Of a stretch of 39,841 nt of DNA, positions 691 to 38,949 are shown piece by piece. This stretch comes from a virus. Lineage: Duplodnaviria > Heunggongvirae > Uroviricota > Caudoviricetes. The number at the start of each line of letters is the position of its first letter. The stretch's first letter is position 1. The notes below the pieces were generated by a model. It was not told the origin of the DNA. It ran no database searches and saw only the letters and a list, made by a program, of their open reading frames with translations. Location: IMG/VR virus record IMGVR_UViG_2711768002_000004; one strand, given 5' to 3'. The position numbers and the translations under genes were made by a program.

Positions 691-1428
691 TCATTCACTC
701 TCTTTCAAACCAGTTTTAACTGTTTGTGGTTTTGGGTAAGGCTGGACTTTGAATAGCTTTGTGTTAAGGCGTTTTCTGGCTCTCTTGTCCAGAAACCGGA
801 TGTAACGAAACTGACGGAATTTATGAACACTGGCTCTGTCGATATTAGCCCGCAGATGTTCACCTCGCTGTCCTCCTCGTTTGATTGCATTCTTGCAAAT
901 CTCGTGATACCACTCGCCATCAAGTTCATAGAATGTTGTTTCATGACTGCCTACATAATCAAAATTGCTTGCCTGGTACACGACACCAAGACAGCCACAA
1001 CGCTCATCTGCAAACGACTGAACCCACTGCACCTGCGGATAAAGTTGTCTGATTAGTTTGAGCGCGTAACTGATTGCCCTTGATTCGGAGTTTCTCGGCA
1101 TACAGTCATGCAGCCATAACCGGTTAAGCTCCATATATTCGCGGTTCTGCGTGCCAGTTACGACGCGTGCACCATTGTTTGGATTAAGGGCATAACCCCA
1201 TTGCATTACGCCAACCAGCTCCCGTTCTGAAAATATGCCCAGATGAAGGTAGGAATTATTTACGAAACGATGGCTGTAATGTTTATTGACGACGACCAGC
1301 CGGGCCAGCCAGCAACTTATTGTCTCAACCCGTAACTCACGGGAGCCATAACCGACGATATTGTCGTTATAGTGAATAAGTTCAGGCGTGCTGATGATAC
1401 GGGATGTAACTTGCTTTCTGTTCCCCAC
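691..1428 (-). CDS. mom: Mom-like DNA modification protein (start uncertain; GTG at 1428 with AAGGAAA upstream proposed)
   Basis: Long ORF 691-1623 overlaps com in another frame; gene position and the com overlap mirror Mu com-mom. No in-frame ATG downstream of com until far inside the ORF, so an alternative start is inferred. Confidence 0.65.
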
Positions 1429-1582
1429 GACAGGATTTCCTTGTGTATGTGGGGTGCTCTGTGGCGCTCTGAGATGTGATTTGATTGAGGGTTTTACAGC
1501 GCGGACATTTAACTTCCAGATAACTGAAGCTGGCTCGTGCCAGTAGCTTGTTACAATGTCGGCACCGTATGTTTCGATACAT
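1382..1582 (-). CDS. com: Com-like zinc-finger translational activator of mom
   Basis: [34 protein letters not shown]... has the CxxC-(17)-CxxC zinc finger and N-terminal pattern of Mu Com. Start moved to ATG at 1582 (AGGAGG 10 nt upstream); the ORF track start at 1627 is a TTG. Confidence 0.8.
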
Positions 1583-1624
1583 GGCCGCATAACCTCCTGC
1601 TTTGTTGTTGATATCTTTATCACT

Positions 1625-30929: not shown

Positions 30930-31254
30930 TATGTATCCCCTGTAATTCCGGCAAGGCCGAAAGATGGCACCAGTGCGTCACCTGTCCGTCCTCATCTTCA
31001 AGGCAGGCTCCGGTTTCTTCATCAATAAAAAAGCCTTCATACCCCATATGGCCGATGCGCAGTTCCTGTTGGTCACCATACTGAACAATCAGCACGACAG
31101 CCTCCATATCAGGCGGAAATGCGTCATCCAGTGAATGCCAGGGATAACCGCGCAAATCCCCGAAATAAACGCCGGTCAGCGTTCCGCCACAGAGCGGCAT
31201 TCCGGCGGCACACACAAGAGGTTCATCTGATTCAACAAATAAGGTCGTTATCAT
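30922..31254 (-). CDS. Hypothetical protein (110 aa)
   Basis: ORF in the early operon, translationally coupled to neighbours. Confidence 0.5.
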   Translation of the reverse strand: MITTLFVESDEPLVCAAGMPLCGGTLTGVYFGDLRGYPWHSLDDAFPPDMEAVVLIVQYGDQQELRIGHMGYEGFFIDEETGACLEDEDGQVTHWCHLSALPELQGIHNG

Positions 31255-31802
31255 GGCGTTAACTCCCGTAATACAGCGTCCTCGGCAGTCCGGCGACGGT
31301 AATAAACTGCGTGAGCAGAATGTTCAGATATTCCAAACTTTTCGCCAATTTCCCGGAATGACAGACGGCGTGGGTAATCGGAATCACGCAGCTCACGTAT
31401 AAGACGTACATCATCATCAGATATGCGCGTGCCGGGGCGTAACTCTCCGCACTTTGTTAATCCAGCACCAATCATTCCTGCCCGACATCTGACAGAATCT
31501 TTATTACGTCCGAGATATTCTCCCATTTGCTGGCAGGTCATTGTTCTGGCATTTTTTCGAATAAACTTATCTTCATCAGGTGTAAATCTTGGGTGTTTAT
31601 ATTTCAGTAACTCCGGGTATGAACTGCGCAATACACCAGTCCGGTTATATACAGCCCAGACAGTTCTTTTTATTCTGGCAGCAATATCCTTAACCGGGGT
31701 GGATGAATAAAGCGCAATCAGCAGCGCATCTTCTTCAGGTGTCCACGGACGGACATGAGCGGGGGCGCGACCTTTTAGTCCCATGGGTTGTAATTTCATC
31801 AT
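31251..31802 (-). CDS. Putative DNA-binding protein with repeated helix-turn-helix-like units
   Basis: WTPEEDALLIALY...IAARIKRTVWAVYNR, FTPDEDKFIRKNAR...MGEYLGRNKDSVRCR, LSFREIGEKFGISEHSAHAVYYRR: three Myb/sigma-r4-like repeats by eye. Confidence 0.45.
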   Translation of the reverse strand: MMKLQPMGLKGRAPAHVRPWTPEEDALLIALYSSTPVKDIAARIKRTVWAVYNRTGVLRSSYPELLKYKHPRFTPDEDKFIRKNARTMTCQQMGEYLGRNKDSVRCRAGMIGAGLTKCGELRPGTRISDDDVRLIRELRDSDYPRRLSFREIGEKFGISEHSAHAVYYRRRTAEDAVLRELTP

Positions 31803-32854: not shown

Positions 32855-32999
32855 GATTTATTTCCCCACCACATTATTAATGACGATATAAACGTATTTC
32901 ATATTTCTTAACCCTTATTTTCTGTTTTCAGGCGCAAGCAGTCCCCTGACGCGAGCGCCATAATTAAAATGAAGTGATATTTAATTGATTAATGCGGTG

Positions 33000-33530
33000 T
33001 TATTTATTCAGTCCGGCGTCCTGTTCAAAAGGCTCGACATAAAAACTTTCAGCGCCTTTATTCACCTTGATACCGGCAATGCCTTTCACAGCATCCGGCT
33101 CCGCCAGGACGGCTTCCTTGTTCACTTCCTCTTTCGTGCGGATGAAACGCTCAAGCCCCATACGGCGCAGCATTTCAATCACACCTTCCACATCACGGCT
33201 GACGCTGCATGATGGCGTTCCCAGCCGCCATGACACCGTTCCGGTGGTCAGATTGGCTGTTTTGGTTTTGCCGCCGTTCGTCAGCTCATCACGGTTGGTT
33301 TTGCACCAGTCCTGAATCCCTTTAAAAAGCACTTTGATTTGCTTTTTAAGATTTTCAATCTGCGGCGTATAACGGGCGGTGATTTCTGCCACTTCGTCAT
33401 TCATCGCCGTTTCCAGGCGCAGCGCCTCTCGCTGAATATCTCCCAGGGTGCGGATATCACGGCTGACTTCTTCCCGGGTCTGCGGTGCCGCCTCGGCTGC
33501 GGCCTTTAATTTTGTAACGCGTTTAGCCAT
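33000..33530 (-). CDS. gam: Gam-like host-nuclease inhibitor (DNA-end binding protein)
   Basis: MAKRVTKLKAAAEAAPQTREEVSRDIRTLGDIQREALRLETAMNDEVAEIT...NRDELTNGGKTKTANLTTGTVSWR...RFIRTKEEVNKEAVL...EPFEQ closely parallels Mu Gam as recalled. Confidence 0.85.
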   Translation of the reverse strand: MAKRVTKLKAAAEAAPQTREEVSRDIRTLGDIQREALRLETAMNDEVAEITARYTPQIENLKKQIKVLFKGIQDWCKTNRDELTNGGKTKTANLTTGTVSWRLGTPSCSVSRDVEGVIEMLRRMGLERFIRTKEEVNKEAVLAEPDAVKGIAGIKVNKGAESFYVEPFEQDAGLNK

Positions 33531-33541
33531 TTTGTTTTTCC

Positions 33542-33835
33542 TTATTGCAGTGTGCCTGATGCTTTATGCACGCGGTGGCGTTTAATGATGGCATCCGCTC
33601 CAAAAGACTGTGCAGATGCCTGAAATTCCGCTGAGAGAAACTGAATAATTGCAGGACTGTGATACTGGAGAATACTTGCATAAACGTCACAGAGTGACGT
33701 CGGCCTGTTATCCGTATCACGTTCTGTTTTCACATCCACTCCAATCTTTTCATGCACTTCAACACAGTCATTGCCTGCCAACTTTTCGTCATGCGAAACA
33801 TGATTAAATTCAAAAATAACGCGTACTTTGCTCAT
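33542..33835 (-). CDS. Hypothetical protein, paralog 2 of a tandem pair
   Basis: Start re-picked at internal Met (MSKVRVIFEFNHV...), immediately after the stop of the upstream paralog. Confidence 0.5.
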   Translation of the reverse strand: MSKVRVIFEFNHVSHDEKLAGNDCVEVHEKIGVDVKTERDTDNRPTSLCDVYASILQYHSPAIIQFLSAEFQASAQSFGADAIIKRHRVHKASGTLQ

Positions 33836-33839
33836 GGAA

Positions 33840-34112
33840 TTACCCCTGTTGATTAAATTCATTACCGTTAATAACCCCGGAAGCCATGCCTCTGTCTTTC
33901 ATGAATGCACTGGCTTTCATTGCCACAAACTCTGCGAAGTTTCTGCTTTCTGCCAGCATAACCACCCCAAAAATCATGGCGGGTCCATTATCTTTCTTCT
34001 TTATTCCGGTTGAACGTATATCCAGACTTACCCCTCTGTGCGTGCTGCCATCAGAGTTTTTGCAGATAACATCTTCCTTGTATTCGAAAATAATGCGTAC
34101 GACTTTACTCAT
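33840..34112 (-). CDS. Hypothetical protein, paralog 1 of a tandem pair
   Basis: MSKVVRIIFEYKED... shares its N-terminal pattern with the next gene. Confidence 0.5.
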   Translation of the reverse strand: MSKVVRIIFEYKEDVICKNSDGSTHRGVSLDIRSTGIKKKDNGPAMIFGVVMLAESRNFAEFVAMKASAFMKDRGMASGVINGNEFNQQG

Positions 34113-34390
34113 CCTCTGGTCCTCGTTCTGTTTGGATAACTGACCCGGCGTCTAACCTCACGGCAGAACCGAATCATGGCATTAAAGGCTTCTTCCTCCG
34201 TCACCGCTTCCGGTATCCCCGGAACCAGTAACTGCTCCTGTTCATCACGTCCATGACGCGCCATAACCTCAATCACATGCCGTACCGTGGCAGGCTTTCC
34301 GGCAACTATCGGCAATGCACCTTCCGGCAGGACGTAACCAAACTCAATAAGACCACTCGACCACGCCCATGCAATGAGATTTTTTTTCAC
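34109..34390 (-). CDS. Hypothetical protein (93 aa)
   Basis: ORF in the early operon. Confidence 0.5.
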   Translation of the reverse strand: MKKNLIAWAWSSGLIEFGYVLPEGALPIVAGKPATVRHVIEVMARHGRDEQEQLLVPGIPEAVTEEEAFNAMIRFCREVRRRVSYPNRTRTRG

Positions 34391-34391
34391 C

Positions 34392-34658
34392 TCACACCTC
34401 CCAGTAAACCGTGCAGCCGCTGATGCGGGTGGCCTTCACACGGCGGCGCAGGCCGTTGGTCTGTATGGTGATTTCAATTTCACCGGTTCCCTGCACGTTG
34501 CCTACCGGCGGCGTGGTTTTCAGTGCAAAACGTTGCGGATAGCGCTTACTGCGTTCCAGTACCGCACCGGCAAGTTCGGTCAGACGGCGCGCGCTGTTCA
34601 GGGAGTCGAATAAATTCATTTTGTTACCGCAGGATTGCATATTCATATAACACCTCAT
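34392..34658 (-). CDS. Hypothetical protein (88 aa; start uncertain)
   Basis: ORF in the early operon. Confidence 0.45.
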   Translation of the reverse strand: MRCYMNMQSCGNKMNLFDSLNSARRLTELAGAVLERSKRYPQRFALKTTPPVGNVQGTGEIEITIQTNGLRRRVKATRISGCTVYWEV

Positions 34659-34886
34659 TTAGCTGACTTGTTTCGCACCAACAGAACGGCATATTCCGCT
34701 GTAAACTTCTGTCGCACCTTCGCGATCAAGTCCGGCAGATATCACCATTCGTGTGCGGTCATTAAATTCAAAAAGTAAATCGCCACATTCTTTATTTTCG
34801 GCCAGTGAAATCACCTTCACGTTATCGAAATTAACCAGGTAAAAGCGTCCGTAAATATCAGGAATATTAAATACCGCCATAATCAC
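34659..34886 (-). CDS. Small early protein directly downstream of B (position of Mu kil)
   Basis: 75 aa; positional analogy only. Confidence 0.45.
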   Translation of the reverse strand: MIMAVFNIPDIYGRFYLVNFDNVKVISLAENKECGDLLFEFNDRTRMVISAGLDREGATEVYSGICRSVGAKQVS

Positions 34887-35824
34887 ACCTGTGAGAGTAA
34901 TTCAGGGTTGGTATAAACCTCTTTAAAGGCCGCATTAATATGTTTTTCTGTCAGCGCCGCGCCTTCACCGCTGGCGGTGAGCCACGCCTGGTTAAGCGTA
35001 TGTGTCAGAACGCGTAACGCTCCCGGCTTTTCAGCGATAGCCTGCATGACGGCCAGCTCGGCCTCACCACTGATCCCCCACGCCATGGCAATGGCCAGCA
35101 CATCCGCCTTTTTGGCCTTGCGAAGTTGTTTTGTACGGGCAAGACGGCTGAACAGGCGCGATAAATCATCAAAGGCGCGGCGTCCACCTTTAAACAATCC
35201 GCGCGGGTTACCAATAAGCACCATCCCGATCCCCGTGGCGTCCTGAATTGCCCGGAGTTGCTCCAGACCGTCAATACCAAGATGATCCGCCTCATCCACA
35301 ATCACCAGTCCACGCGTTCCCATCAGGCGACGGCGGATGGCGCGGGATAATGCCCCTTTGTTCGCGCGGGTGTAATCAATCCCCAGCGCATCGGCCAGCT
35401 CCAGCAGACACTCCGTGACGCTGGAGTGCGCGGGTGACAGGGTGATCATCCAGGTGTTTGGTTGCTCCTGGCAGTAATTACGGGCAGTGGCCGTTTTACC
35501 CACACCCGGTACGCCCACAATAACGTTAATACAGCCCATCAGGCGAACCGCCTGAAACAGTGCGCGCAGCTCCTGGACTGTCTGAGTTTCCACAAACTGC
35601 GGCGGTTCCGGCAGTGCGCTTTGTTTATTCCAGTTCTCATACCAGGAGCGCAGGGAAGCAGCCACAGCAGCGTTATCGCCTTTATATTTTCCCTTACGGA
35701 AAGCCGATAATGTGCCGTCGGAAATTCCCGCCTCTCTGGCGATGGCATACTGCGTCAGTACGCCGCCATCAATAAGTTCATCAATGGTCTTGATTACATC
35801 GTTAATATCGGTCATATTATTCAC
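34883..35824 (-). CDS. B: Transposition protein B (MuB-like ATP-dependent target DNA activator)
   Basis: 313 aa; P-loop VGVPGVGKTATARNY, DEADHLG, and end-to-end similarity to Mu B as recalled (PEPPQFVETQTV..., KPGALRVL...). Confidence 0.9.
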   Translation of the reverse strand: MNNMTDINDVIKTIDELIDGGVLTQYAIAREAGISDGTLSAFRKGKYKGDNAAVAASLRSWYENWNKQSALPEPPQFVETQTVQELRALFQAVRLMGCINVIVGVPGVGKTATARNYCQEQPNTWMITLSPAHSSVTECLLELADALGIDYTRANKGALSRAIRRRLMGTRGLVIVDEADHLGIDGLEQLRAIQDATGIGMVLIGNPRGLFKGGRRAFDDLSRLFSRLARTKQLRKAKKADVLAIAMAWGISGEAELAVMQAIAEKPGALRVLTHTLNQAWLTASGEGAALTEKHINAAFKEVYTNPELLSQV

Positions 35825-35897: not shown

Positions 35898-37985
35898 TCA
35901 GGCCAGCGGATCACTTTCTTTTAATTTCGCTTCGAGCAGTTGCAATCCCCGCTGGAAATTACGCTCGTATTCTTCATCAGGTTCATCGTCAGCGACCGGT
36001 TGCTGAACGGTCACCGTATTACCCACAGGGCGGTATATGTTTTCCAGCCAGGGCTCCTGCGGCTTGTGCTCCAGCACGTTGACAACCTCATCCTCGGCAT
36101 CACGGATTTTTTCCTCTGCGCGTTTACGCATGCCTTTAAGGCGCTGCTGCTGTTTGTAGTATTCCGCGCTGACAGGGAAGGCTTCGCGTTTATTGCCGTC
36201 CCATACCGCCTCGCAAATCACGCTGCCATCCGGGCGGCGCACGGTAATTCGTTCGGCATCATGAATGTCATAGCTGATAAGTACCTTACGGCCATGCTCG
36301 TCACGCAGCTCGGGCGCGTAGTAAATATTATTCAGCCAGCGTATTTCACAGCGTCTTACAGGGCGCTCCACCATCGGCCGGAACATATCCCGCAGTTCAA
36401 CATCGGACAGCCATTCAATTTCCGTGTCCTCTTCCGCCAGGCGTTTTTTTCTGAACTCCGCCGGGCTGTAATGTTTACCGTTCGGCTTCATGGGTAATTC
36501 ATCGTGCGGCCGGTTGTTGTACCACTCAACACCGTCACGAATGGCATCAATCAGTTCAGACCAGGACGGTAAATCACGCATCGCTGACTGCTGCCGGGCG
36601 TTCAGCCGTTTGCCCTGTTGCAGGGCACTGAATGCCGAGCGTAAATCGCGGTTGGTTTTACGTAACGTCTCGCGATCTGCTCCTTTCCCGAAATAGGTGC
36701 GGTATTTACGGGCTATGCGCATCGGTAATGTGCGGTTAAGCCGTTCGATAATGCCCCGTCCCTGCGGATTACCGGCAATCCCTGTCGGGTGATTAATCCC
36801 CAGTCGTGGCAGTATCCCCACAATCTCCTTATCCAGGACGTCGGCGGTTTCCCCGGAGCCATTATCCGAGTAATACAGAAACGGTTTGCCATGATGGCGA
36901 ATACCGTGCTGTATGGCACCGGCTACGGCGAAAACATTTTCAGCCAGGTCAAGGCTCCAGCCCACCACAAAGCGCGTGCCACCGTCGATAACAAAGGTCA
37001 CTTCCGGTGCGAATGGCCGCCCGTGAACCGGGTGCGCGCATTTCAGCTTCATGCCGTGACCGTCACCAATCCAGACATAATTCACCGGCATTCTGGACCA
37101 GTCGCGGCGCGTGAATCCCTCAAGCTGACGGTATTCACTGCCAGTTACCCGGCCTTTTTGTTTCACCACTTCCGGCAGTTTCTTCATTGCGCGGCGAATG
37201 GTGTCATAAGAGGGCATGATATCGAGCATATAAGGCTCATCAGCGTGCCGGTGCTGCCATTCAGCAACAAAATCCTCGTAAGCCTCGGTCATTGGTCGGC
37301 CGTTTGACTGGCGATACTGCGCCAGAAATTCGGGCAGCCAGTTAATATCTTCGGCTTTTATTTCCTGGCGTTTACCCGGTGCCAGTAAAAGCAGGCGTTC
37401 AGCGGCGTTCTGTGCCTTGTTAAAGGCCGCAATCCAGCGTTTCAGCGTGATTTCACTCAACGCGCGGCTGTTTCCCTTTTTGGCGTTCGCCGTCTCAACC
37501 ATTGCCACAATGCGCTCGTCCAGTTGTGATCGTGCCAGGCTGTTAACGAGGAACCGGATAGCTTTAGCGCAGCTGAAACCGGGTTGTTGCGTGAATTTCA
37601 GCACCTCACTGACGATCGCAATGCGTGCGTCTGCCACCTGGCGCTGGTTTTCAGTCAGGGCATTGAGGCGTTCGACCATCAGTTGTGGTGATCCGCGATA
37701 TGCCTCCACCGCATCAACCACGGCAGACGAGCGTCTGGCCTTTGTCACCACCGGAGCCGGTGATTCATCGGCTTTTTGCGTCATCAGTTGCAGGGCATAA
37801 CGTTCGCGTAATGCCTGCTGTGTCACTTCAGGTAAACAGTCAATGCTGTATTCAAAACCTTTAGCGCCTTTCTTGCGGCGTCTGCTGGTTTCGCTGGTTG
37901 CATACTTCCTGATTGAATAGCGAACGCCTTGCTCCGTTCCCGGCATCCCCGGTAATCCAACCAGTTCTTTAACTGAAGCAAACAT
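35898..37985 (-). CDS. A: DDE transposase (MuA-like)
   Basis: 695 aa; N-terminal VSPKE..LPG-like opening (ASVKELVGLPGMPGT) and position directly after ner. Confidence 0.9.
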   Translation of the reverse strand: MFASVKELVGLPGMPGTEQGVRYSIRKYATSETSRRRKKGAKGFEYSIDCLPEVTQQALRERYALQLMTQKADESPAPVVTKARRSSAVVDAVEAYRGSPQLMVERLNALTENQRQVADARIAIVSEVLKFTQQPGFSCAKAIRFLVNSLARSQLDERIVAMVETANAKKGNSRALSEITLKRWIAAFNKAQNAAERLLLLAPGKRQEIKAEDINWLPEFLAQYRQSNGRPMTEAYEDFVAEWQHRHADEPYMLDIMPSYDTIRRAMKKLPEVVKQKGRVTGSEYRQLEGFTRRDWSRMPVNYVWIGDGHGMKLKCAHPVHGRPFAPEVTFVIDGGTRFVVGWSLDLAENVFAVAGAIQHGIRHHGKPFLYYSDNGSGETADVLDKEIVGILPRLGINHPTGIAGNPQGRGIIERLNRTLPMRIARKYRTYFGKGADRETLRKTNRDLRSAFSALQQGKRLNARQQSAMRDLPSWSELIDAIRDGVEWYNNRPHDELPMKPNGKHYSPAEFRKKRLAEEDTEIEWLSDVELRDMFRPMVERPVRRCEIRWLNNIYYAPELRDEHGRKVLISYDIHDAERITVRRPDGSVICEAVWDGNKREAFPVSAEYYKQQQRLKGMRKRAEEKIRDAEDEVVNVLEHKPQEPWLENIYRPVGNTVTVQQPVADDEPDEEYERNFQRGLQLLEAKLKESDPLA

Positions 37986-38403: not shown

Positions 38404-38949
38404 ATGAACAAGCAAACAACAACATCTCTTTCTTTTCCTGGTGGTAGAAAAGAAAGCATTGCTGAGCGTCTGAAAAGGCTGATTGGCTCCCGCAGCGTCA
38501 GAGCTGCAGCAAGAGATTGGGGGCTTTCATTTTCAACACTAAACAATTATCTGTCTCGTGGCACTGAGCCATCCTTAAGTGTCGCCCTTCAGATTGCGTC
38601 TATCGAAGGAGTAAGTGTTGAGTGGCTATGTGGATTCAGTGATGCATCACAAGTGAATCGGTGTGAGATCAAGGAAAATCAAGATGAAAGCAAGAAGATA
38701 ATTATGACGATTATCAGCGCACTTGATGAAAAAGACTTAGAGCAGCTATCGAAAAATTTGGTTCTGAATGGAGCCAAGTACTTAGCTCGGTTGTTAGAGC
38801 CTGAAAATCAAGATCTAATCCGCTTAGAAGGAAGGAAAAGAATAGCTGCATTACAGCTTGAAGGTATGTCTGACGAACGCGTCAGAGAGATTTTGGAAGA
38901 AACTGAGAGAAGTCGCAAATCTAACGCGGTAGAACCAAAAGCGGGTTAA
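38404..38949 (+). CDS. Prophage repressor, XRE/CI-type helix-turn-helix (functional analogue of Mu c)
   Basis: 181 aa; HTH ...SVRAAARDWGLSFSTLNNYLSRGTEPSLSVALQIASIEGVSVEWL; divergent from ner-A-B; no S24 peptidase motif seen. Confidence 0.75.
   Translation: MNKQTTTSLSFPGGRKESIAERLKRLIGSRSVRAAARDWGLSFSTLNNYLSRGTEPSLSVALQIASIEGVSVEWLCGFSDASQVNRCEIKENQDESKKIIMTIISALDEKDLEQLSKNLVLNGAKYLARLLEPENQDLIRLEGRKRIAALQLEGMSDERVREILEETERSRKSNAVEPKAG

Follow-up and report, generated by a model that had tools for sequence, protein, structure and literature searches.

Two small, fast-evolving early genes beside gam in an Escherichia coli Mu-like prophage and their probable kinship with Mu gp7 (Gnarl2)

What are the two small genes that lie side by side next to gam in the prophage of IMG/VR record IMGVR_UViG_2711768002_000004? 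This stretch of 39,841 nucleotides (nt), analysed as a whole and designated here as the window, is a complete Mu-like prophage of Escherichia coli that is read on the minus strand. The pair, designated as genes A and B (distinct from the transposases of the same letters), occupies positions 33542–34112. An initial annotation made from the sequence alone described tandem paralogues with a common N-terminal pattern, and attributed them to duplication under diversifying selection as in inhibitors of host defence. Comparison of alleles indicates that A and B are real, constrained and fast-evolving genes that are shuffled by recombination. They are probably related to each other and to Mu gp7, the O-antigen-altering protein Gnarl2, and this kinship points to the host envelope as a candidate site of action.

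Gene A is a 90-amino-acid (aa) open reading frame (ORF) on the minus strand (33840–34112) whose sequence begins MSKVVRIIFEYKED.... Gene B, also on the minus strand, extends from an ATG at 33835 to its end at 33542 and encodes 97 aa, beginning MSKVRVIFEFNHV.... In RefSeq, the Prokaryotic Genome Annotation Pipeline (PGAP) lists the products as WP_000049428.1 (A) and WP_000049310.1 (B), each as a “hypothetical protein”. Over its full length, A belongs to phrog_4107 (E value of 1.7e-54), as B does to phrog_2230 (E value of 1.8e-38), so that both were already catalogued as orphan families of phages and prophages. PHROGs v4 keeps the two as separate families, both annotated as “unknown function”, and neither an A–B link nor a link to gp7 is present in its remote-homology clustering. 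A search of the literature turned up no publication that mentions WP_000049428, WP_000049310, phrog_4107 or phrog_2230. A is basic with an isoelectric point (pI) of 9.25 and a net charge of +2.6, while B is mildly acidic (pI 6.3, net charge −2). Both are soluble with no transmembrane segment (maximum 19-residue Kyte-Doolittle score ≤1.17), and no enzyme domains were found in them.

The junction of the two genes (33833–33848, minus strand) consists of a Shine-Dalgarno-like CAGGGG, the TAA stop of A (33842–33840), TTCC, and the ATG of B. The start of B therefore follows the stop of A after 4 nt, as the initial annotation had described, and a GGGG run lies 7 nt upstream of this ATG within the last codons of A. 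The mechanical ORF of B begins at an in-frame ATG at 33862 inside A, which gives 106 aa and an overlap with the last 7 codons of A (33836–33862). The 97-aa form starting at 33835 is favoured by the PGAP annotation and by conservation. On the other side, the ATG of A overlaps the stop of a 93-aa gene (ATGA). The tight spacing between A and B suggests that the two are translationally coupled.

The N-terminal resemblance of the two proteins is beyond chance. Both begin with MSKV(V)R(I/V)IFE(Y/F). Specifically, codons 1–11 of A (34080–34112, minus strand) encode MSKVVRIIFEY and codons 1–10 of B (33806–33835, minus strand) encode MSKVRVIFEF, the copy in A being one codon longer. A loose regular expression for this motif matched only these two sites across the six frames of the window, and among 3074 unique ORFs from 146 loci it matched only A-family and B-family proteins plus one positional analogue from Trabulsiella. 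The Smith-Waterman local score of A against B (50) was equalled in 1 of 5000 shuffles, and that of the N-terminal 11 residues alone in none of 5000. Downstream of the motif the proteins have diverged, as had also been noted from the sequence, with a BLASTP identity of 22% over 76 aligned residues (E value of 6e-4). The two family profiles drew on 18 sequences of A and 12 of B, among them P0033, an A protein with 57% identity, and a second allele class of B with 58% identity. hhalign of the two profiles gave an E value of 4e-6 and a probability of 87% with a match confined to residues 1–34, and the full profile comparison had z = 10 against 120 column-shuffled controls. When jackhmmer was run on the 3074 ORFs together with shuffled decoys, the only cross-family matches of A were B proteins and vice versa, and no decoy scored. 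The similarity is concentrated in the first ~11 residues and fades by residue ~34.

At the DNA level, 27 of the first 30 aligned nt of A and B are identical and the remainder is at random-level identity. Synonymous sites in codons 1–15 vary among the alleles of each gene (proportion of synonymous differences, pS, 0.14–0.26) while the 5′ ends of A and B nearly match; thus these ends look like the product of recent exchange by gene conversion or recombination, beyond ancient conservation alone. Past the motif, Smith-Waterman comparison gave p values of ~0.02–0.05 for some allele pairs and non-significant values (up to ~0.5) for others, and a class-2 A allele has an additional HV-x-H stretch in common with B. 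Four of the 18 A proteins matched phrog_2230, the family of B, as their second-best PHROG (E value of 0.0065, residues 5–79 to positions 2–75), and this match was lost both on removal of the N-terminus and on shuffling of the remainder. AlphaFold2 models from shallow alignments, of low confidence with predicted local distance difference test (pLDDT) scores of 53 and 57, gave the same hairpin-then-helices order for both proteins (strands at 3–18 and 24–35, then helices, against strands at 4–19 and 25–39, then helices). The lengths are also similar and the alignments colinear.

Tandem paralogy of A and B is therefore plausible and partly shown. The proposal of a duplication is supported by the significant N-terminal similarity and not by an extension of that similarity over most of the length (z = 0.7 without the motif). 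Indeed, pairwise alignment came close, at the sequence level, to the absence of significant similarity past the first residues that the initial annotation had held to speak against duplication. Common descent is favoured by indirect evidence, namely the similar length, colinearity and predicted order of secondary structure, the cross-matches between PHROGs, and the controls, in which the match depended on the N-terminus as well as on the remaining sequence.

A third protein appears to belong with the pair. The kil–gam interval of Mu contains the 87-aa gp7 (E6, Mup07, NP_050611.1; phrog_10252), which starts with MAKVIIEIKN, an N-terminus of the same type as those of A and B. Like them, gp7 is a small soluble early protein encoded in the kil–gam interval of a Mu-type early operon. 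All 16 of 16 gp7-family proteins, which are non-independent relatives, match phrog_2230 as their second-best family among 38,880 PHROGs, with E values from 5.6e-5 to 9e-3 and a nearly full-length correspondence of residues 1–86 to positions 1–88 of 89. Three full shuffles of gp7 gave no match to phrog_2230, nor did the native N-terminus joined to a shuffled remainder, and the best gp7 relative without its residues 1–10 still gave an in-register match (13.7 bits, E value of 0.11). The controls behaved as expected if the similarity between gp7 and phrog_2230 is weak but real. In Trabulsiella guamensis (L028, 652–933), an 83-aa protein (MAKQTITIILEDD...; phrog_18464) is encoded in the same kil–gam interval, between gp8-like and 93-aa-like genes and upstream of gam. 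It matches the A profile over the hairpin (hhalign P of 0.0037) and is a candidate for the same family. A MAFFT alignment of all four groups was colinear, with a strand/hairpin, D/G-rich loop and helix pattern that gp7 has in common with A and B.

The gp7 family is restricted to enterobacterial Mu-like phages (Mu, SfMu, and the Yersinia vB_YpM phages), a further likeness to the pair. It differs from the pair in several respects, and forms a PHROG separate from those of A and B. gp7 is single-copy in Mu and is followed by gp8 and gp9, whereas the A/B pair is followed by gam. No locus contained both A/B and gp7 (within ±2 kb). The similarities among the three proteins are weak but colinear and consistent in position, and on their combined strength A, B and gp7 probably belong to a single divergent family, with a likelihood of roughly two thirds; we infer that their homology extends over the whole length.

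The function of gp7 comes from a single recent screen, in which 196 phage accessory genes were examined in wild E. coli (Silas et al., Nat Commun 2025; PMC12373910). The gene orf63 of that study, identical to NP_050611.1 (Mu Mup07), was named gnarl2 (PMC12373910). Its expression caused a downshift of the O-antigen bands in ECOR1 and ECOR22 and raised T5 infection of both strains 10^5–10^6-fold, the phenotype on which the name is based, and transposon disruption of O-antigen genes phenocopied the effect (PMC12373910). Affinity purification-mass spectrometry with Gnarl2 gave no clear target (PMC12373910), and we found no later paper on the mechanism or target of gnarl2. The authors proposed that these 40–90-aa proteins act on host O-antigen-modifying enzymes and that the benefit to the phage is superinfection exclusion or less re-attachment to debris (PMC12373910). 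The gene was scored as a “counter-defence” accessory gene, while its action is on the O-antigen barrier and not on an intracellular immune system (PMC12373910). Gnarl1 and Gnarl3 also shift O-antigen bands, and their likeness to A and B is only one of functional class (40–90-aa non-enzymatic proteins with proposed interference with lipopolysaccharide (LPS) or O-antigen synthesis); unlike A and B they come from lytic phages, and a target is established for Gnarl3 only, which binds GalU (PMC12373910). When A and B are compared with the Gnarl2 type (40–90 aa, non-enzymatic, encoded early in Mu-type phages between kil and gam), they agree with it, B being slightly over length at 97 aa.

We propose, with a probability of about 0.45, that A and B are divergent Gnarl2-like modifiers of the host envelope. 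The O-antigen phenotype is that measured for gp7, and an envelope-directed function of the pair is a further deduction from this one published screen. Both would be cytoplasmic, non-enzymatic small proteins of the “semi-essential early” region of Mu, co-transcribed and translationally coupled in an early operon with the order ner-A-B-75aa-kil-93aa-A-B-gam (the first A-B being the transposases). As divergent members of the small family that includes Mu gp7 (E6/Mup07, Gnarl2), they are predicted to share a fold with an N-terminal β-strand (M-S/A-K-V-x-x-I-x-E) and a long β-hairpin with a variable tip, followed by a D/G-rich loop and by amphipathic helices at the C-terminus. On the model of Gnarl2, a host factor of O-antigen or LPS synthesis or modification would be bound by each protein during lytic growth, with a resulting change of the cell surface. 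Mu adsorbs to LPS, so that an LPS-directed early function would be sensible for this phage group, and a plausible benefit would be that superinfection or the re-adsorption of progeny is blocked. Two diverged copies with recombining, fast-evolving alleles could cover a wider range of strain-specific host variants, and the variable patches of A and B are probably surface-exposed. A membrane-peptide mechanism, as of Iap of Pseudomonas phage D3, was rejected on hydropathy: Iap is a short hydrophobic membrane peptide, whereas A and B have no transmembrane segment, and no homology was found. Iap itself is a small phage-encoded inhibitor of O-antigen polymerase (as cited in PMC12373910).

A more specific version of the proposal is that basic A and acidic B form a co-evolving pair of Gnarl2-type inhibitors against strain-variable O-antigen or LPS enzymes, in which reshuffling of cassettes tracks the O-antigen diversity of the hosts. 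A and B would act on separate targets or as a heterodimer joined through the shared N-terminal strand, and the hairpin tips of A and the classes of B would be reshuffled among co-resident Mu-like prophages. We consider this version quite doubtful; were it correct, the locus would amount to a “specificity library”, assembled in nature, for small-protein seroconversion factors of a new class.

Several results weigh against the proposed kinship and function. Direct hhalign of the gp7 family gave E values of 0.02 against A and 0.08–0.14 against B with global z ≤1.4, which are not significant, and hhalign of A or B against the single Mu gp7 sequence was not significant either. The PHROG cross-matches are weak (17–24 bits) and, as noted, the 16 gp7 relatives among them are not independent of each other. 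On N-terminal truncation, two further gp7 proteins lose the match to phrog_2230, and so does A. Without the first 11–12 residues, the A–B comparison falls to chance level (local z = 0.7, global z = 0.0). That the 5′ 30 nt nearly match beside a saturated remainder suggests a recent exchange of 5′ ends, which could also join unrelated genes. The AlphaFold2 models are poor, and a Foldseek search of BFVD with both of them gave no match below an E value of 0.05. An exhaustive HMMER scan of 1.84 billion representative proteins with the A profile revealed no distant relatives. Finally, the phenotype of Gnarl2 was obtained by plasmid overexpression in a single study (PMC12373910).

The distribution of the pair is narrow. 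In searches of 5.8 billion proteins and of the 1.84 billion representatives, A and B were found only in Mu-like prophages of E. coli. The word-indexed searches of the larger set with A, B and Mu gp7 returned close relatives only, almost all from E. coli, with gp7 relatives also from Salmonella and Shigella. In the HMMER scan with the A profile, the true matches were fragments of A only, and the others were rejected as spurious repeat proteins (a cadherin-like repeat, a leucine-rich repeat with “LDVSSTGIK”, and similar). Loci anchored on gam in 42 other species (Gilliamella, Haemophilus, Pseudomonas, Rhodobacter, and others) had unrelated upstream genes and no homologue of A or B. Among 5426 complete E. 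coli genomes, ~230 contain the A/B region, and a single genome may have as many as four copies.

A survey of copy number in related prophages showed that the genes nearly always occur as a pair. Recognisable A followed by B was found in 38 of the 41 A-anchored IMG/VR loci; the remaining three are cut by contig ends, two of them lacking the beginning of A ahead of B and one breaking off within A. Truncated forms of one gene or of both occur in a few of these loci. B was present in every complete locus examined, and no locus with A alone was seen among them. The B-anchored loci added one B-only case, L123 (1902–2294). The complete genomes CI5, M1 and M3 are also B-only, with kil, a B-type gene behind an A-type upstream region, and gam; in L123 as well as in the loci L146 and L147 (1322–1615; E. 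coli M3 and CI5), A and the 93-aa gene are both absent. The B-only arrangement occurs with both allele classes of B and is what a crossover in the shared 5′ segment should produce; the 5′ end of B is the likely crossover site behind the rare single-copy prophages L123, L146 and L147. A further rearrangement was observed in P0030 (E. coli, 67 aa), an in-frame A::B fusion of A residues 1–49 (...PAMIFG) with B residues 80–97 (ADAIIKRHRVHKASGTLQ), which apparently arose by deletion between short FG-encoding repeats.

A and B are the most variable genes of their neighbourhood, and their alleles are mosaic. The two allele classes of B are ~58% identical to each other, and the classes of A and B are found in all four pairings. 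In class 2, B is replaced from approximately codon 10 to the stop while the flanks are 97–100% identical. In A, the hypervariable patch covers codons 12–27 (34032–34079, minus strand), which correspond to the predicted tip of the β-hairpin and behave as a cassette exchanged between alleles. For example, the locus L059 matches the window at 100% along most of ~1.6 kb, the differences being a ~60-nt stretch at the A hairpin tip (70–77% identity) and a few isolated substitutions. At least 11 variants of this patch were found, with a ratio of nonsynonymous to synonymous differences (pN/pS) of 0.42–0.71. Targeted hypermutation of the patch, as by a diversity-generating retroelement, was rejected: the same variants recur in other alleles with high synonymous divergence, and ordinary recombination between alleles is sufficient.

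The ratios of nonsynonymous to synonymous substitution rates (dN/dS; pairwise Nei-Gojobori estimates, with windows of 15 codons) were 0.30–0.34 for A and 0.35–0.47 for B, compared with 0.09–0.11 for gam, 0.11–0.13 for kil, 0.13 for the 93-aa gene, and 0.16–0.18 for the gp11-like gene. The value for A indicates that it is a real coding gene. The highest 15-codon values were 0.79 in A (codons 71–85) and 1.02 in B (codons 81–95), none being clearly above 1, and synonymous divergence was also high in the variable patches of both genes. On these grounds, the variability points to recombination between old alleles with relaxed constraint and not to demonstrable positive selection. The suggestion of diversifying selection is thus in keeping with the local excess of variation and the mosaic alleles, but not with gene-wide ratios of 0.30–0.47 and the absence of a window clearly above 1.

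The same observations may be explained without a whole-length family. A and B may be unrelated small accessory genes, and not whole-gene paralogues, that share a 5′ segment of ~30 nt spread by recombination or gene conversion. The segment would be a junction for cassette swap or deletion, and its peptide a by-product, a generic first β-strand or a translation-initiation context. This would account for the identity of 27 of 30 nt in front of a random-level remainder, for the ~2 synonymous differences in the segment, which are no more than among alleles of one gene, and for the lack of significant similarity past residue ~12. It would also fit the B-type body directly behind an A-type upstream region in L123, CI5, M1 and M3, and the class 2 allele boundary of B right after the conserved 5′ codons. 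The similar lengths and the same predicted strand-strand-helix order speak against it. The match of A to the PHROG of B spans residues 5–79 and requires the non-N-terminal part, the hhalign match reaches residue 34, and the class-2 A allele has the HV-x-H stretch in common with B (beyond-motif shuffle p of ~0.02). Homogenisation of the 5′ ends by gene conversion is equally expected of true tandem paralogues, and we regard the shared segment as a somewhat unlikely explanation of the whole resemblance.

Two other readings concern function. The idea that A and/or B inhibit intracellular host defence or repair (nuclease, restriction, retron, or abortive infection), alongside Gam and the 93-aa gene, is suggested by their position between kil/phrog_1518 and gam, in a region of Mu with host-takeover functions. 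Small, orphan, fast-evolving and mosaic genes are typical of anti-defence, and the narrow distribution in one host species agrees with this. This part of the initial annotation received no direct support: A and B had no matches in Pfam, NCBIfam and PADLOC, a weak test as these libraries hold defence and not anti-defence proteins, and profile searches of the PDB with A and B found no relatives, so that there is no similarity to any annotated family or solved structure. A DNA-mimic mechanism of the Ocr/ArdA type was rejected on charge (pI 9.25 and 6.3), since neither protein is strongly acidic. With dN/dS below 1 gene-wide (0.30–0.47) and the sole characterised distant relative, gp7, acting on the O-antigen barrier (PMC12373910), an intracellular defence inhibitor appears unlikely. 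Alternatively, A and B could be near-neutral, decaying accessory ORFs whose variability reflects relaxed constraint in a dispensable part of the prophage. Their dN/dS is 3–4 times that of the neighbouring genes, many database variants are frameshifted or truncated (P0039, P0052, P0061, P0063, L080, L084, and L085), A is entirely lost in some prophages, and an in-frame A::B fusion exists (P0030). Against this, the ratios of 0.3–0.47 are well below 1 at a synonymous divergence of up to 0.5–1.2, no allele differs at the N-terminus or at several core positions, most of the ~230 genomes have both genes intact, B occurs in every complete locus examined, and the tightly coupled spacing is maintained. 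We therefore consider decay very unlikely.

The genomic setting of the pair is that of a Mu-like early operon. A helix-turn-helix (HTH) repressor gene (38404–38949, plus strand) lies at one end of the window and a Mom-family gene (691–1623, minus strand; PF25680, E value of 1.6e-77) at the other, which indicates that the window spans essentially the whole prophage. In transcription order on the minus strand, the early genes are a ner-like HTH gene, transposase A (35898–37985), transposase B (34883–35824), a 75-aa gene (34659–34886; phrog_3375), a Kil-like gene (34392–34658; phrog_2679), and the 93-aa gene (34109–34390; phrog_1518, annotated as “host nuclease inhibitor”), which is the immediate upstream neighbour of A. 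After A (phrog_4107) and B (phrog_2230) come gam (33000–33530, minus strand; PF07352, E value of 5.5e-42), whose product is the host-nuclease inhibitor Gam with 57% identity to Mu Gam, and then homologues of gp11 and gp12 with 68% and 55% identity to their Mu counterparts. The placement of the two genes next to gam in the initial annotation is thus correct. The transposases, the Kil-like gene, Gam, the gp11 and gp12 homologues and Mom all support the Mu-like identity of the window. The DNA of the locus matches several complete E. coli chromosomes at 100% identity and the “Mu-like phage” inserts of two Shiga toxin (Stx) phage records at 93–94%. No promoters or terminators above chance were detected inside the early block and no Rfam family was found; an RNA element or antisense gene is accordingly not indicated.

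Variation was also observed around the pair. The 93-aa gene is absent or replaced in ~10 of 41 related loci, where its last ~60 nt are retained upstream of A, and a homologue of this gene adjoins gam in Trabulsiella too (L028, 944–1207). In the intergenic region between gam and the gp11-like gene (32855–32999), most related prophages carry an extra ~500–670 bp that the window does not have. Where a gene was read, the insert is ~645 bp and contains a 180-aa ORF (MAYFYFKLDRVQTNKYF...; compare L123, 2934–3476) with no Pfam match. This intergenic region is a second variable accessory slot adjoining gam. Further along, a 183-aa early protein (31251–31802, minus strand) has weak Myb/SANT and HTH matches and is 27% identical to Mu gp9 (E value of 2e-6). 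The gp9-like gene is located downstream of gam in the window and upstream of gam in Mu, and the early region is rearranged relative to that of Mu.

A and B were already known as orphan PHROGs and hypothetical proteins, and variable small genes are expected in the semi-essential early region of Mu. What is modestly new is the probable kinship of A and B with each other and with Gnarl2, as drawn from sequence comparison, and the description of the mosaic alleles and copy-number variants of the pair. Should A and B be unrelated to gp7, the well-known variable “semi-essential” region of Mu-like phages would simply gain another pair of fast-evolving orphan early genes. Gnarl2 itself (Mu gp7), a small O-antigen-altering protein described recently, has so far been known from a narrow family only. 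If A and B are its relatives, the Gnarl2 family would be wider and would include a diversified pair present in ~4% of complete E. coli genomes, among them many O157 and other Shiga toxin-producing strains. The natural variants of this pair, namely the hairpin-tip cassettes, the two classes of B, and the single-copy and fusion forms, could then help to map the binding surface and the host target of these proteins.

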